Assembly (NCBI RefSeq): GCF_988243305.1
Contig: NZ_OZ547136.1
DNA: 64,000 nt
Direction: 5' to 3' (one strand)
A program made the position numbers and the translations under genes. Shown piece after piece: positions 2,327-57,130 of the stretch. The notes beneath the pieces were generated by a model. The model saw nothing but the letters and a program-made list of their open reading frames with translations, did no database searches and had not been told where the DNA came from. Numbering within the stretch: position 1 is the first letter of the stretch; every line of letters starts with the position of its first letter.

Positions 2327-3298
2327 GTGACCATTGCTATTGTTATAGGCACACATGGTTGGGCTGCAGAGCAGTTGCTTAAAACCGCAGAAATGCTGTT
2401 AGGCGAGCAGGAAAACGTCGGCTGGATCGATTTCGTTCCAGGTGAAAATGCCGAAACGCTGATTGAAAAGTACAACGCTCAGTTGGCAAAACTCGACACC
2501 ACTAAAGGCGTGCTGTTTCTCGTTGATACATGGGGAGGCAGCCCGTTCAATGCTGCCAGCCGCATTGTCGTCGACAAAGAGCATTATGAAGTCATTGCAG
2601 GCGTTAACATTCCAATGCTCGTGGAAACGTTAATGGCCCGTGATGATGACCCAAGCTTTGATGAACTGGTGGCGCTGGCAGTAGAAACAGGCCGTGAAGG
2701 CGTGAAAGCTCTGAAAGCCAAACCGGTTGAAAAAGCCGCGCCAGCACCCGCTGCCGCAGCACCAAAAGCGGCTCCAACTCCGGCAAAACCAATGGGACCA
2801 AACGACTACATGGTTATTGGCCTTGCGCGTATCGACGACCGTCTGATTCACGGTCAGGTCGCCACCCGCTGGACCAAAGAAACCAATGTCTCCCGTATTA
2901 TTGTTGTTAGTGATGAAGTGGCTGCGGATACCGTTCGTAAGACACTGCTCACCCAGGTTGCACCTCCGGGCGTAACAGCACACGTAGTTGATGTTGCCAA
3001 AATGATTCGCGTCTACAACAACCCGAAATATGCTGGCGAACGCGTAATGCTGTTATTTACCAACCCAACAGATGTAGAGCGTCTCGTTGAAGGCGGCGTG
3101 AAAATCACCTCTGTTAACGTCGGTGGTATGGCATTCCGTCAGGGTAAAACCCAGGTGAATAACGCGGTTTCGGTTGATGAAAAAGATATCGAGGCGTTCA
3201 AGAAACTGAATGCGCGCGGTATTGAGCTGGAAGTCCGTAAGGTTTCCACCGATCCGAAACTGAAAATGATGGATCTGATCAGCAAAATCGATAAGTAA
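2327..3298 (+). CDS. manX: PTS mannose-specific EIIAB component
   Basis: 323-aa ORF with GTG start preceded by AAGGAGG; Ala/Pro-rich linker between IIA and IIB domains; matches ManX. Confidence 0.97.
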   Translation: MTIAIVIGTHGWAAEQLLKTAEMLLGEQENVGWIDFVPGENAETLIEKYNAQLAKLDTTKGVLFLVDTWGGSPFNAASRIVVDKEHYEVIAGVNIPMLVETLMARDDDPSFDELVALAVETGREGVKALKAKPVEKAAPAPAAAAPKAAPTPAKPMGPNDYMVIGLARIDDRLIHGQVATRWTKETNVSRIIVVSDEVAADTVRKTLLTQVAPPGVTAHVVDVAKMIRVYNNPKYAGERVMLLFTNPTDVERLVEGGVKITSVNVGGMAFRQGKTQVNNAVSVDEKDIEAFKKLNARGIELEVRKVSTDPKLKMMDLISKIDK

Positions 3299-3360
3299 CG
3301 TATTGTGTTGATTATCACTCAGTTTTCACACTTTAGTCTTACGTAAACAGGAGAAGTACA

Positions 3361-4161
3361 ATGGAGATTACCACTCTTCAAATTGTGCTGGTATTTATCG
3401 TAGCCTGTATCGCAGGTATGGGATCAATCCTCGATGAATTTCAGTTTCACCGTCCGCTAATCGCGTGTACCCTGGTGGGTATCGTTCTTGGCGATATGAA
3501 AACCGGTATTATTATCGGTGGTACGCTGGAAATGATCGCGCTGGGCTGGATGAACATCGGTGCTGCAGTTGCGCCTGACGCCGCTCTGGCTTCCATCATT
3601 TCTACCATTCTGGTTATCGCAGGTCATCAGAGCATTGGTGCAGGTATTGCACTGGCAATCCCTCTGGCCGCTGCGGGCCAGGTACTGACCATCATCGTTC
3701 GTACTATTACCGTTGCTTTCCAGCACGCTGCGGATAAGGCTGCTGATAACGGCAACCTGACAGCGATTTCCTGGATCCACGTTTCTTCTCTGTTCCTGCA
3801 AGCAATGCGTGTGGCTATTCCGGCCGTCATCGTTGCGCTGTCTGTTGGTACCAGCGAAGTACAGAACATGCTGAACGCGATTCCGGAAGTGGTGACCAAT
3901 GGTCTGAATATCGCCGGTGGCATGATCGTGGTGGTTGGTTATGCGATGGTTATCAACATGATGCGTGCTGGCTACCTGATGCCGTTCTTCTACCTCGGCT
4001 TCGTAACCGCAGCATTCACCAACTTTAACCTGGTTGCTCTGGGTGTGATTGGTACTGTTATGGCAGTGCTCTACATCCAACTTAGCCCGAAATACAACCG
4101 CGTAGCCGGTGCGCCTGCTCAGGCAGCTGGTAACAACGATCTCGATAACGAACTGGACTAA
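3361..4161 (+). CDS. manY: PTS mannose-specific EIIC component
   Basis: 266-aa polytopic membrane protein directly downstream of manX. Confidence 0.97.
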   Translation: MEITTLQIVLVFIVACIAGMGSILDEFQFHRPLIACTLVGIVLGDMKTGIIIGGTLEMIALGWMNIGAAVAPDAALASIISTILVIAGHQSIGAGIALAIPLAAAGQVLTIIVRTITVAFQHAADKAADNGNLTAISWIHVSSLFLQAMRVAIPAVIVALSVGTSEVQNMLNAIPEVVTNGLNIAGGMIVVVGYAMVINMMRAGYLMPFFYLGFVTAAFTNFNLVALGVIGTVMAVLYIQLSPKYNRVAGAPAQAAGNNDLDNELD

Positions 4162-7339: not shown

Positions 7340-7504
7340 GACAACTCCGGCAGGATACTAAAGGCCGCAAGTGTAACGCGAATCACGCGGCGGGCAAATA
7401 TCCGAACGACTGGAGCGAAGATAAAGCAAAGTAAAAAGCCTCGCATTCGACGAGGCTTTATAGCGAGATTGAAGCGTATTCACACTTCAGATCAGTGGAT
7501 TCGA

Positions 7505-7714
7505 TCAGATAGCTGTTACGTTAACAGCTGCCGGACCTTTCTGACCGTCCTGAATTTCGAACTCAACGTTCTGACCTTCAGCCAGAGTTTTGAAACCATT
7601 ACCCTGGATAGCAGAGAAGTGTACGAACACGTCTTTGCTGCCATCAGCCGGAGTAATGAAGCCAAAACCTTTAGACTCGTTGAACCACTTAACCTGACCT
7701 TTAATCTTTGCCAT
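7505..7714 (-). CDS. cspC: Cold-shock-like protein CspC
   Basis: 69-aa ORF with canonical cold-shock domain (KGFGFI, VFVHF). Confidence 0.97.
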
Positions 7715-7726
7715 TTGAAAAATTCC

Positions 7727-7870
7727 TTAGATTGTTTTCTTCGCCCGCAGGCATAACATAGATAAAACTGACACATTACTGCATGAGGCACCAATATAAG
7801 GCTCGGCAGAGAAGCGGTATTCAACGTCAACGTGTTTACTCAGGACTTCTTTACTGAAAATGCCACACAT
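7727..7870 (-). CDS. yobF: Small protein YobF (47 aa), cotranscribed upstream of cspC
   Basis: Hand translation of the minus strand gives [47 protein letters not shown]; below the ORF-track size cutoff. Confidence 0.85.
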
Positions 7871-8539
7871 AAACAGAACTGTACCTCGTTTAACCCGAAA
7901 TCTGTTATCACATACAACGTTAATTATGGCAAGCCATTTTTAAACATGTCTCGATCAGACGCACAAATCTCGATACGTCTTCCACTTTTTTTGCACACTT
8001 ATGCAACGGAATACGCGCCGATATATCATTGTGCTTAACCTTGCCAGTTCAGGCAGATACTTAAACTGACGTATTTTCTAACATAGTTCAATAAGTTCAG
8101 TTGTTCCAGGCCAGTGGGAGAAGTTATTACATAGTGCGTGCAATATCACATTTTCTGCTATGCAATGAATAAAAAGTTATATCACTTTTTCTCATAAAAC
8201 AGTCAGTTAACGGCTATCGATCACCCCAAAGAGAAGTCAATCGCCAAAGGTATTGTAAATTTAAAATAAGAAAAATTGATGAATGCGCAAAAAAATCAAG
8301 AGAGAAACGTTTCGCTAATAAATAATACCACACTTAATCACAAATCCGATGTAAACATCCTAATAAATTAATGGGCTAAATATCTTTTTCTGATATCCCG
8401 TTACGCAAATAAATAATATGATAATTATTTGAAGTCAGACCAGAGTTTTAATTTGAAGCAGTTGCACCATGGCAGTGCGTATAATCAGGATGAATTGAGT
8501 AACCCTTCAACGACGGGGTTACTCAAGATTGAGGAAGGA

Positions 8540-22591: not shown

Positions 22592-23248
22592 TTATTGCAA
22601 TTGCACAACAGTCAGTTCGCCCCCAAAGACAGCACCTGTATCAATATAATGCAGGTTGCCAATATCCACGCGATGGCGCAACGGTGTATGACCAAACCAG
22701 AAATGATCAGCACCTGTAATTCCCTGCCCTTTTTGGCGTTCACTTAATCGCGAGCGGCTCCACAAGACCTGATGCAAATCGACGTCCTTTTGCCATTCAT
22801 AAACATCATCCGGATAATCGGCATGGGCAATAACATGTTTGCCGGTGCGACTGTGTACTTCAAGAATAAAGGGCAAATACTGACATTTTTCCAGCGCCGT
22901 TTTCGCTTGTTTCTGTTGATTATCTGCCAGCGCAATAAACCAGTCGCCGCCATTCATCAACCACAAAGACATCTGCTGGGATGCCAGCGCATCCATCGCC
23001 ATCTGTTCATGATTGCCTCTTACCGCACGAACCCAATGTTGTTCCAGTAACTGCAGGCAACGTAAACTTTGCGGCCCACGATCGATAACGTCTCCCACTG
23101 AGATAAGTAAATCTCGCCACGGATCAAAACGACAATGCCATAATTTGCAGCGCAACTGCTCAAGACAACCGTGTATATCGCCTGAAAGCCAGATATGTCG
23201 CCATTGATGACCCGCAATTCTCTGATAAACGGGCGCAGGCTGTTTCAT
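22592..23248 (-). CDS. pphA: Serine/threonine protein phosphatase 1
   Basis: Calcineurin-like phosphoesterase motifs (GDIHG, GDVIDRG, GNHE); 218 aa from the second Met. Confidence 0.93.
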   Translation of the reverse strand: MKQPAPVYQRIAGHQWRHIWLSGDIHGCLEQLRCKLWHCRFDPWRDLLISVGDVIDRGPQSLRCLQLLEQHWVRAVRGNHEQMAMDALASQQMSLWLMNGGDWFIALADNQQKQAKTALEKCQYLPFILEVHSRTGKHVIAHADYPDDVYEWQKDVDLHQVLWSRSRLSERQKGQGITGADHFWFGHTPLRHRVDIGNLHYIDTGAVFGGELTVVQLQ

Positions 23249-23345
23249 CAATATTTTCCTCCCGCGCTAAAGATCACATAATCTTAACAAGAATGTTAAA
23301 AAACGCTGGACTCAGACAGTAGAGTGTGTGTTATGGTTGACTATA

Positions 23346-23612
23346 AAGTCAGCGAAGGGAATGCTTCTGGCTTTTAACAGATAAAAAGAGACCGAACACG
23401 ATTCCTGTATTCGGTCCAGGGAAATGGCTCTTGGGAGAGAGCCGTGCGCTAAAAGTTGGCATTAATGCAGGCTTAGTTGCCTTGCCCTTTAAGAATAGAT
23501 GACGACGCCAGGTTTTCCAGTTTGCGTGCAAAATGGTCAATAAAAAGCGCGGTGGTCATCAGCTTAAATGTTAAAAACCGCCCGTTCTGGTGAAAGAACT
23601 GAGGCGGTTTTT
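23346..23612 (+). ncRNA. ryeA: Antisense small RNA RyeA (SraC) overlapping SdsR; boundaries approximate
   Basis: Known antisense partner of SdsR in the pphA-yebY intergenic region; plus-strand hairpin and T-run at 23574-23612. Confidence 0.5.
23384..23485 (-). ncRNA. sdsR: Small regulatory RNA SdsR (RyeB)
   Basis: Minus strand reads GCAAGGCAACUAAGCCUGCAUUAAUGCC...GUGUUCGGUCUCUUUUU, matching the recalled SdsR sequence and its terminator. Confidence 0.8.
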
Positions 23613-23642
23613 TATTGGAAATCAAAAGGCTATTTTAGGTAA

Positions 23643-23984
23643 TTAACAGAGTTTTTCAGCTCGCTCTATAAACGGTGCCAGACTCATTTTTTCTCCTGGA
23701 TTGTTAGGATCATCAATCTGAATCACCGAAATGGGCTGGGCTTTAGTCTTCCCGCTGGCGACTTCCTTTTGTGCAATATCGTTTAACGGATACTGCACGA
23801 GGGTACTTGGGTTAATGACATACAAAGCATTACCCGGTCGGCAAGTCAGCATCACCTCTTCGCGGTTAAATGCCCATTTGTCTTTACCCACTTCAAAACG
23901 ACTGACGGTAATCACCTGCGGTGCCGCCAGCGCCGCTGCAGAACTGGTGAGTAACAGAAACGCCAGAATACTTTTTTTCATCAT
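23643..23984 (-). CDS. yebY: Periplasmic DUF2511 protein YebY
   Basis: 113-aa ORF with signal peptide; synteny with yebZ and yobA. Confidence 0.9.
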
Positions 23985-43690: not shown

Positions 43691-44623
43691 TTAATCTCCT
43701 TTCAGGCAGCTCGCATACTGGTTGGCTAATTGATTCAGGAATTCTGAATAGCTTGTTTTACCCAGTTTGATATTCGTCCCCAGGGGATCCAACGTTCCCA
43801 TACGAACGGATGTCCCTCGTGCGACGCTCTCAACGACCGCTGGCCTGAACTGTGGCTCAGCAAAAACGCAGGTTGCTTTTTGCTCAACCAACTGTGTTCT
43901 TATTTCATGTAAACGCTGCGCGCCAGGTTGAATCTCAGGGTTAACGGTAAAATGACCAAGCGGTGTCAGTCCGAACTGTTTTTCGAAATAGCCGTAAGCA
44001 TCGTGAAAAACGAAATAACCTTTCCCCTTGAGCGGCGCGAGCTCGTTACCAACCTGCTTTTCGGTTGAGGCTAATTGTGCCTCAAAATCCTTCAGGTTGG
44101 CGTCAAGTTTGGCTCGACTTTGCGGCATAAGTTCCACTAATTTTCCATGGATTGCAACCGCTGTAGCCCGCGCTATCTCTGGGGAAAGCCAAAGATGCAT
44201 GTTGAAATCGCCGTGATGGTGATCTTCGTCACTTTTTTCCGCGTGGTCGTGATCATCATCATCGCCGTGAATACTTTTCATCAGCAGCGGTTTCACATTC
44301 TCTAGCTGCGCAATCGTTACCTGTTTCGCTTCAGGTAATTTACTTACCGGTTTTTGCATGAACGCTTCCATCTCCGGGCCAACCCAAACGACTAAGTCCG
44401 CGTTCTGTAAGCGTTTTACATCTGATGGACGCAGTGAATAATCATGTTCTGAAGCGCCGTCAGGTAGTAAAACCTCCGTTTCTGTTACCCCATCAGCAAT
44501 GGCAGAAGCGATGAACCCAACGGGTTTAAGCGAAGCGACAACGGCAGCATCTGCGGCCTGTGTTGCACCGCCCCAGAGAGCGGCGGATAATGCTGCGAAA
44601 AGAAGCGTTTTTTTATGTAACAT
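43691..44623 (-). CDS. znuA: Zinc ABC transporter periplasmic binding protein ZnuA
   Basis: Start at [23 protein letters not shown] (signal peptide), 310 aa; His/Asp-rich loop; the track ORF is extended upstream. Confidence 0.95.
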
Positions 44624-48841: not shown

Positions 48842-50167
48842 GGAGATCCCCTCATAATTTCCCCAAAGCGTAACCATGTGTGAATAAATTTTGAGCTAGT
48901 AGGGTTGCAGCCACGAGTAAGTCTTCCCTTGTTATTGTGTAGCCAGAATGCCGCAAAACTTCCATGCCTAAGCGAACTGTTGAGAGTACGTTTCGATTTC
49001 TGACTGTGTTAGCCTGGAAGTGCTTGTCCCAACCTTGTTTCTGAGCATGAACGCCCGCAAGCCAACATGTTAGTTGAAGCATCAGGGCGATTAGCAGCAT
49101 GATATCAAAACGCTCTGAGCTGCTCGTTCGGCTATGGCGTAGGCCTAGTCCGTAGGCAGGACTTTTCAAGTCTCGGAAGGTTTCTTCAATCTGCATTCGC
49201 TTCGAATAGATATTAACAAGTTGTTTGGGTGTTCGAATTTCAACAGGTAAGTTAGTTGCTAGAACCCATGGCTCCTTTGCCGACGCTGAGTAGATTTTAG
49301 GTGACGGGTGGTGACAATGAGTCCGTGTCGAGCGCTGATTTTTTCGGCCTTTAGAGCGAGATTTATACAATAGAATTTGGCATGAGATTGGATTGCTTTT
49401 AGTCAGCCTCTTATAGCCTAAAGTCTTTGAGTGACTAGATGACATATCATGTAAGTTGCTGATAGGTTTCCAGTTTTCCGCTCCTAGGTCTGCATATTGT
49501 ACTTTTCCTCTTACTCGACTTAACCAGTACCAACCCAGCTTCTCAACGGATTTATACCATGGCACTTTAAAGCCAGCATCACTGACAATGAGCGGTGTGG
49601 TGTTACTCGGTAGAATGCTCGCAAGGTCGGCTAGAAATTGGTCATGAGCTTTCTTTGAACATTGCTCTGAAAGCGGGAACGCTTTCTCATAAAGAGTAAC
49701 AGAACGACCGTGTAGTGCGACTGAAGCTCGCAATACCATAAGTCGTTTTTGCTCACGAATATCAGACCAGTCAACAAGTACAATGGGCATCGTATTGCCC
49801 GAACAGATAAAGCTAGCATGCCAACGGTATACAGCGAGTCGCTCTTTGTGGAGGTGACGATTACCTAACAATCGGTCGATTCGTTTGATGTTATGTTTTG
49901 TTCTCGCTTTGGTTGGCAGGTTACGGCCAAGTTCGGTAAGAGTGAGAGTTTTACAGTCAAGTAATGCGTGGCAAGCCAACGTTAAGCTGTTGAGTCGTTT
50001 TAAGTGTAATTCGGGGCAGAATTGGTAAAGAGAGTCGTGTAAAATATCGAGTTCGCACATCTTGTTGTCTGATTATTGATTTTTGGCGAAACCATTTGAT
50101 CATATGACAAGATGTGTATCTACCTTAACTTAATGATTTTTACCAAAATCATTAGGGGATTCATCAG
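48839..50167 (-). mobile_element. IS10 insertion sequence (1329 bp)
   Basis: 402-aa IS10 transposase ORF; outside end reads CTGATGAATCCCCTAATGATTTTGGTA at 50167; identical 9-bp direct repeats cgtttggtg at 48830-48838 and 50168-50176. Confidence 0.88.
48852..50060 (-). CDS. IS10 (IS4-family) transposase
   Basis: 402-aa ORF MCELDILHDSLYQFCPELHLKRLNSLTLACHALLDCKTLTL... matching the recalled Tn10/IS10 transposase. Confidence 0.95.
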   Translation of the reverse strand: MCELDILHDSLYQFCPELHLKRLNSLTLACHALLDCKTLTLTELGRNLPTKARTKHNIKRIDRLLGNRHLHKERLAVYRWHASFICSGNTMPIVLVDWSDIREQKRLMVLRASVALHGRSVTLYEKAFPLSEQCSKKAHDQFLADLASILPSNTTPLIVSDAGFKVPWYKSVEKLGWYWLSRVRGKVQYADLGAENWKPISNLHDMSSSHSKTLGYKRLTKSNPISCQILLYKSRSKGRKNQRSTRTHCHHPSPKIYSASAKEPWVLATNLPVEIRTPKQLVNIYSKRMQIEETFRDLKSPAYGLGLRHSRTSSSERFDIMLLIALMLQLTCWLAGVHAQKQGWDKHFQANTVRNRNVLSTVRLGMEVLRHSGYTITREDLLVAATLLAQNLFTHGYALGKL

Positions 50168-56545: not shown

Positions 56546-57130
56546 TTACTCACTGACAGGGTTCGTAGGCCACTCAATATCAGGTGCAGTTGATGTATCA
56601 ACACGGTTCAGCAACACCCGATACTTCTTCCAGGCTTCCAGCAACGAGTTTTCTTCCTCCGTTGCGATTTCCAGATCTGCAGCATCCTGAAGCGGCGCAA
56701 TATGCTCACTGGCTACCTGCATCAGGTTGTTTTTTGTTTCTTCCGCCTCCCGGATCCGGAACAGTTTTTCTGCTTCCGTATCCTTCACCCAGGCTGTGCC
56801 GTTCCACTTCTGAAACTCCCCTTCCGGCGATAACCAGGTAACATTTTCCGGTAACGGACCGAGTTCAGAAATAAATAACGCGTCGCCGGAAGCCACGTCA
56901 TAAACCGTTTTACCCCGATGGTCTTCAAAGAGATGCCACGATGACTCATCACTGTTGAAAACAGCCACGAAGCCAGCAGGAATATCTGGTGGTGCAATAT
57001 CGGTACTGTTTGCTGGCAGACCTGTATGAGGCGGAATATATGCGTCACCTTCACCAATAAATTCATTAGTTCCGGCCAGCAGATTATAAATTTTTATGGT
57101 CCGTGGTTGTTCACTCATTCTGAATGCCAT
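56546..57130 (-). CDS. tfa: Tail fiber assembly protein Tfa
   Basis: 194-aa ORF overlapping the stf stop by 1 nt; matches lambdoid Tfa. Confidence 0.92.

Follow-up and report, generated by a model that had tools for sequence, protein, structure and literature searches.

The sdsR/ryeA antisense RNA pair in the spacer between pphA and yebY

Gene order and RNA families in the pphA-yebY spacer

The window, by which we mean the whole 64,000-nucleotide stretch of DNA analysed, contains a 394-bp spacer, examined here as the stretch 23252-23642, flanked by two minus-strand genes: pphA (22592-23248), encoding a 218-aa calcineurin-like phosphatase (Pfam Metallophos, E = 3e-14), and yebY (23643-23984), encoding a 113-aa DUF2511 protein (E = 4.8e-45). 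Scanning the whole window against Rfam 15 at the gathering threshold gave five matches, two of them in this spacer. SdsR_RyeB (RF00111) matches the minus strand at 23383-23482 (114.4 bits, gathering 38, E = 1.8e-21) and SraC_RyeA (RF00101) the plus strand at 23379-23523 (175.1 bits, gathering 37, E = 2.9e-40), each end to end (model positions 1-100 of 100 and 1-145 of 145, respectively). A search with covariance models of these two families had been named beforehand as the check on a first-pass annotation that placed SdsR and RyeA here, absence of an SdsR match being the refuting outcome; both families score above gathering. A core SdsR pattern with 24 specified bases has a single match in the window and none across 100 shuffles, which excludes chance for the SdsR match. 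Permissive scanning of the spacer identified no further Rfam family at E < 0.1, and an rliE candidate (22.7 bits against a cut-off of 90) was rejected as chance level.

We aligned the spacer to the curated genome of K-12 MG1655 (NC_000913.3), in which ryeA (b4432) spans 1923066-1923337 on the plus strand (272 nt) and sdsR (b4433) spans 1923104-1923207 on the minus strand (104 nt), between pphA and yebY. The two spacers are 99% identical, separated by three substitutions and one 1-nt indel. As the K-12 sdsR and ryeA genes are curated and experimentally mapped, this agrees with the original description of the region as a known locus between pphA and yebY. The spacer is almost certainly the canonical Escherichia coli sdsR/ryeA (ryeB/sraC) locus, already described; it is essentially the same as in the reference strain, and new biology is not implied.

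Elsewhere in the window, the Rfam scan touches three further regions. An IS10-type insertion sequence (48852-50122) comprises a 402-aa IS4-family transposase ORF on the minus strand (48852-50060; NCBIfam NF033591, 404 bits) and an Rfam match to the RNA-OUT antisense RNA on the plus strand (50053-50122, 99.5 bits). The element adjoins ruvC, at the place of yebB in reference strains, and none of the complete E. coli genomes spans the 48-60 kb part of the window in one piece. An Rfam 'IS009' match (224 bits, 56589-56787, minus strand) lies wholly within a 194-aa ORF (56546-57130, minus strand) whose counterpart in NZ_AP022298.1 is a prophage tail-fibre assembly gene and which adjoins an 898-aa tail-fibre ORF; what this sRNA family recognizes seems to be protein-coding prophage DNA. 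The cspA thermoregulator model matches the minus strand at 7430-7890 (139.7 bits), where the underlying gene is not cspA but its paralogue cspC (69-aa ORF, 7505-7714), with yobF (47 aa, 7727-7870) in the cspC leader.

Ends, promoters and terminators of SdsR and RyeA

On the minus strand, sdsR (ryeB) occupies 23383-23486, 104 nt as in the K-12 annotation, and is 100% identical to NC_000913.3 sdsR (104/104). Choi et al. (2019, PMC6610125) mapped the primary start one nucleotide inside the older annotation (equivalent to window position 23485) and the 3' ends to +100 to +102 (approximately 23384-23386). The computed fold has three hairpins (-32.5 kcal/mol, z = -4.0 relative to shuffles): a 5' hairpin (SL1), an internal GGCUCU/AGAGCC hairpin, which is present in the minimum free energy (MFE) structure, and an 11-bp Rho-independent terminator hairpin (23389-23417), recovered by both terminator scan and MFE fold and followed directly by a U-tail (23383-23388). 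With the full-length RF00111 match and the identity to K-12, this hairpin and tail bear out the earlier reading of the minus strand as SdsR with its terminator. The promoter (23492-23519, minus strand) reads as sigma-S type, with a -35-like TGGAAA (23519-23514), a -10 element TATTCT (23497-23492), a 16-bp spacer, C at -13, T at -14, C at -8 and an AT-rich TAA discriminator. Frohlich et al. (PMC3333887) give C at -13, C at -8, the AT-rich discriminator and the 16-bp spacer as sigma-S selectivity features of sdsR promoters.

Transfer of the K-12 coordinates by alignment places ryeA (sraC) at 23345-23615 on the plus strand, where it encloses all of sdsR; its length is 271 nt compared with 272 nt in K-12. 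RyeA is therefore the longer plus-strand antisense partner, as first proposed. The proposed extent of 23346-23612 captured the right locus, with ends that fall short by 1 nt (5') and 3 nt (3'). In K-12, RyeA transcription begins at three neighbouring positions, of which the annotated start is the furthest downstream, and its 3' ends lie at +261 to +270 (PMC6610125). The sigma-70 promoter (23306-23337, plus strand) is 100% identical to that of K-12, with an extended -10 element TGtTATGGT at 23329-23337 (hexamer TATGGT, 23332-23337). A conserved CTGGACT block (23306-23312) is likely the -35 element, although the exact hexamer is uncertain. TATGGT is the hexamer that Choi et al. swapped for CTCGAG to abolish RyeA (-10 mutant primer RyeA-p3: TGTGTGT-CTCGAG-TGACTATAAAG; PMC6610125).

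RyeA ends at a bidirectional Rho-independent terminator (23573-23612). This hairpin is as stable on one strand as on the other (-20.0 and -19.8 kcal/mol; z-scores -4.1 and -5.5), and thus also terminates yebY on the minus strand. A simple terminator scan detected the SdsR terminator and missed this one because its stem is bulged; folding recovered it. Across species, among the matches listed, the A-run and T-run flanks of the RyeA/yebY terminator are conserved and the stem is variable.

The RF00101 match needs care in interpretation. The 145-nt model (23379-23523) spans the strand opposite SdsR and the sdsR promoter and takes in no sequence peculiar to RyeA at either its 5' or its 3' end, so that a RyeA match follows automatically from an SdsR match. 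It scores 94-175 bits in 18 of 18 other species tested, drawn from six families and including Yersinia, Serratia, Dickeya and Erwinia. We therefore rejected this match as independent support for RyeA, as it scores wherever SdsR does. At the level of sequence, support specific to RyeA comes from its terminator and from a promoter that matches, base for base, the one defined by experiment in K-12.

Conservation and the role of RyeA

Searching one-genome-per-species contigs with the core SdsR pattern retrieved at least 120 loci, spanning Enterobacteriaceae, Yersiniaceae, Pectobacteriaceae, Hafniaceae and Erwiniaceae; the pattern itself fixes SdsR +35 to +63, making conservation of that segment uninformative. 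Among the matches listed, the 109 loci with full flanks show SdsR to be 90-100% conserved from +1 to +104, against 5-50% for sequence on either side. The sdsR promoter blocks are 97-100% conserved in these listed matches (109 species), and RyeA-specific sequence outside the sdsR overlap is poorly conserved (109 loci). An alignment of 75 distinct orthologous sequences from the same matches supports the terminator helix directly: the helix is paired in every cell (100%), double-sided compensatory changes are seen at three pairs, and a control in which the helix partners were slid drops pairing to 20-47%. The 5' hairpin is paired in 78% of cells among these matches, a value that is probably due to misalignment of its indel-rich segment by MAFFT. 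The middle hairpin is invariant among the matches listed, an ascertainment effect of the search pattern, which fixed that segment.

Gene order is asymmetric around sdsR. Among the matches listed, yebY lies directly upstream on the same strand at about 107 of the 113 loci with room to check, and pphA lies directly downstream at 16 loci only. This agrees with the gene order reported by Frohlich et al. (PMC3333887); among the organisms that these authors examined, only about half had sraC sequences. The ryeA promoter motif TGnTATGGT occurs within 196 nt of sdsR on the RyeA strand at 26 of 115 listed loci and on the opposite strand at none of the 115; its distance to sdsR is 53 nt in E. coli and mostly 80-90 nt elsewhere among these matches. 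Two of the retrieved loci carry other Rfam matches: rydB in Atlantibacter, approximately 270 nt from sdsR (3936-4000 of the retrieved locus), and KDPG-aldolase RNA in the Samsonia sdsR locus (8381-8466 of the retrieved locus).

What we established ourselves concerns the sequences and their boundaries, the promoters and terminators, RNA structure, conservation and synteny. For dependence on sigma factors, targets, cleavage by RNase III, transcriptional interference and read-through into pphA we draw on the literature. Published work describes a reciprocal pair. SdsR is a stationary-phase, RpoS-dependent and Hfq-associated RNA, and RyeA is expressed in exponential phase (PMC6610125, PMC3333887). 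Sigma-S holoenzyme accounts for almost all SdsR transcription and sigma-70 holoenzyme for all transcription of RyeA, and each RNA ends at a site of intrinsic termination (PMC6610125). Each RNA also favours degradation of the other, transcription of ryeA hampers the sdsR promoter, and pphA expression is largely read-through from the sdsR promoter (all PMC6610125). Trans targets of SdsR are ompD, tolC, mutS and yhcB, and overexpressed SdsR kills through repression of yhcB (a gene outside the window), from which RyeA rescues (PMC6610125, PMC8610362). In stationary phase, no RNase III double-stranded RNA cluster is more abundant than the ryeA-ryeB duplex (PMC7373196).

Given the identity or near-identity of the two loci, we infer that the window strain behaves as K-12 does. 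The sigma-S-type promoter on the minus strand would yield SdsR of approximately 102-104 nt, ending at its Rho-independent terminator, with part of the transcription passing that terminator into pphA. SdsR would accumulate in stationary phase as an Hfq-associated trans-acting sRNA, repressing by short base-pairing mRNAs such as ompD (in Salmonella), tolC, mutS and yhcB. On the plus strand, the sigma-70 promoter with its extended -10 element would yield RyeA of approximately 271 nt, running across all of sdsR and its promoter to stop at the bidirectional terminator common to RyeA and yebY. RyeA would then limit SdsR in growing cells in two ways, by convergent transcription that interferes with the sdsR promoter and by pairing of the perfectly complementary RNAs, which RNase III would cleave.

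The part played by RyeA as an RNA product, beyond these cis effects, is debated, and the 'toxin-antitoxin' label for the pair rests on ectopic overexpression. In one account, which we regard as rather unlikely, SdsR is the only functional RNA; any effect of the plus-strand transcript would come from the act of convergent transcription, through interference and the control of read-through into pphA, and its product would not serve as an RNA 'antitoxin'. The poor conservation of RyeA-specific sequence and the shift in ryeA promoter position between genera, both seen among the matches listed, are as this account expects, and the Rfam RyeA model likewise lacks RyeA-specific information. Frohlich et al. 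(PMC3333887) took the same view, arguing that RyeA is dispensable for SdsR control, and Choi et al. (PMC6610125) found pphA to be controlled by transcriptional interference and not by RyeA in trans. Yet Choi et al. also observed mutual degradation when either RNA was overexpressed in trans, and earlier appearance of SdsR in a ryeA promoter mutant; the ranking of ryeA-ryeB as the top RNase III cluster (PMC7373196) and the retention of the extended -10 element on the RyeA strand only, among the listed species, likewise argue against this account.

Locus integrity, coding readings and relation to known systems

Within the species the spacer is near universal: of 5426 complete E. coli genomes, 5425 carry it, with 95-100% identity; one of these, GN06156, has a spacer identical to that of the window. 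It is split in approximately 237 of the 5425. The 3' end of sdsR contains a 32-bp prophage attachment core (23382-23413), unoccupied in the window. E. coli CFS3292 has a 43.5-kb Rac-like prophage (integrase, excisionase, RalR, RecET and Kil) between sdsR and pphA, with the 32-bp core equivalent to window 23382-23413 duplicated at both prophage ends (333-364 and 43873-43904 of the retrieved region); the insertion parts sdsR from the ryeA promoter and pphA. Balbontin et al. (2008) described the sdsR 3' end as an insertion hot spot in Salmonella. A different event is seen in E. coli FDAARGOS_944, where IS1A (approximately 3225-4000 of the retrieved region) sits in the 5' part of sdsR, equivalent to window position 23476 or thereabouts; this strain is probably without intact SdsR and RyeA.

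Split spacers of this kind, one with a prophage at the sdsR 3' end and another with IS1 inside sdsR, raise the idea that the Rfam matches in the window mark a residual or disrupted copy. We consider this extremely improbable: between pphA and yebY the spacer follows the K-12 sequence without a break and in the same order, one 1-nt indel being the only gap, both Rfam models are matched over their full length, and the K-12 alignment rules the idea out. The locus in the window is intact and its attachment site empty.

Beyond E. coli, 13 of 114 other Enterobacterales loci among the matches listed repeat part of the 3' arm of the sdsR terminator in direct orientation (..TATTCGGTCT); the repeat lies 50-65 nt downstream of the gene, in the interval that separates it from the RyeA promoter. 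Such copies may be scars of past integrations at the attachment core; a second terminator-arm copy near the RyeA 5' end was looked for in the window and none was found. As a tentative proposal, which we regard as rather unlikely, antisense transcription over sdsR may itself be selected in Enterobacteriaceae, in view of the strand-specific -10 motif with its shifting distance to sdsR, repeated prophage integrations at the sdsR 3' end could move or replace the ryeA promoter and leave partial att-like copies, and the window allele, with its three substitutions and shorter T-run, might slightly alter RyeA stability or termination. Identification of the locus is unaffected by this proposal.

Among the matches listed, none of 55 PGAP-annotated RefSeq E. 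coli records (two inspected in full) has a feature over the spacer, and only the curated NC_000913.3 carries ryeA and sdsR features. The value of recognizing the pair is thus mainly one of annotation, in that it prevents a false protein call by ORF callers. It also draws attention to a regulatory node: SdsR, under RpoS control, acts on genes for porin, efflux, mismatch-repair and envelope functions and drives pphA by read-through as well.

The protein call at issue is a mechanical 63-aa ORF (23349-23540, minus strand) with a TTG start at 23540, which the first-pass annotation had warned against taking for a gene. That the spacer encodes a small protein, in this ORF or in overlapping 50-aa and 38-aa ORFs, has next to no probability: the frames are present mechanically, but none of the three has a Pfam match, and starts and stops are scattered across 114 orthologous loci, conservation is flat across codon positions, 1-2 nt indels occur and the start lies upstream of the SdsR start site. 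Specifically, among the matches listed, the same-frame ORF varies from 26 to 158 aa and mostly opens at an ATG inside SdsR, with the TTG kept in 2 of 114 loci. Within SdsR, conservation in these matches is approximately 100% whichever of the three codon positions is taken, and it is lost precisely at the boundaries of the sRNA; the indels fall within the 63-aa ORF between species, and the TTG is 55 nt upstream of the mapped SdsR start. The 63-aa ORF is not a gene, and the spacer is best read as the sdsR/ryeA locus.

The closest known system is that of K-12, which has the same flanking genes and strands, the same nesting of sdsR in ryeA and both terminators, with SdsR identical at 104 of 104 positions and both promoters unchanged. 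The differences are three substitutions in RyeA (window 23359 G for A, 23550 C for T and 23565 T for G) and a RyeA terminator T-run of 6 compared with 7, the one missing T accounting for the RyeA length of 271 nt. All four differences are confined to RyeA-only sequence. With Salmonella SdsR/SraC (PMC3333887) the window locus has in common the sequence of SdsR, the sigma-S features of its promoter and its place downstream of yebY. E. coli RyeA/SraC is approximately 35 nt shorter than its Salmonella counterpart (PMC3333887) because the -10 box is nearer to sdsR, and the gene 3' of sdsR differs between genera, pphA adjoining in only a minority of the matches listed.

More widely, SdsR-RyeA is the prototype of type VIII toxin-antitoxin systems, in which toxin and antitoxin are both RNA (PMC8610362). 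The arrangement in the window has this form: with all of sdsR nested in ryeA on the other strand, a toxin RNA is paired with an antitoxin RNA complementary to it along its whole length. ArcZ with its antisense RNA and the type I toxin-antitoxin pairs likewise overlap convergently to give a perfect duplex degraded by RNase III (PMC7373196). Unlike in those pairs, SdsR and RyeA are both non-coding sRNAs, and SdsR also acts in trans through Hfq.
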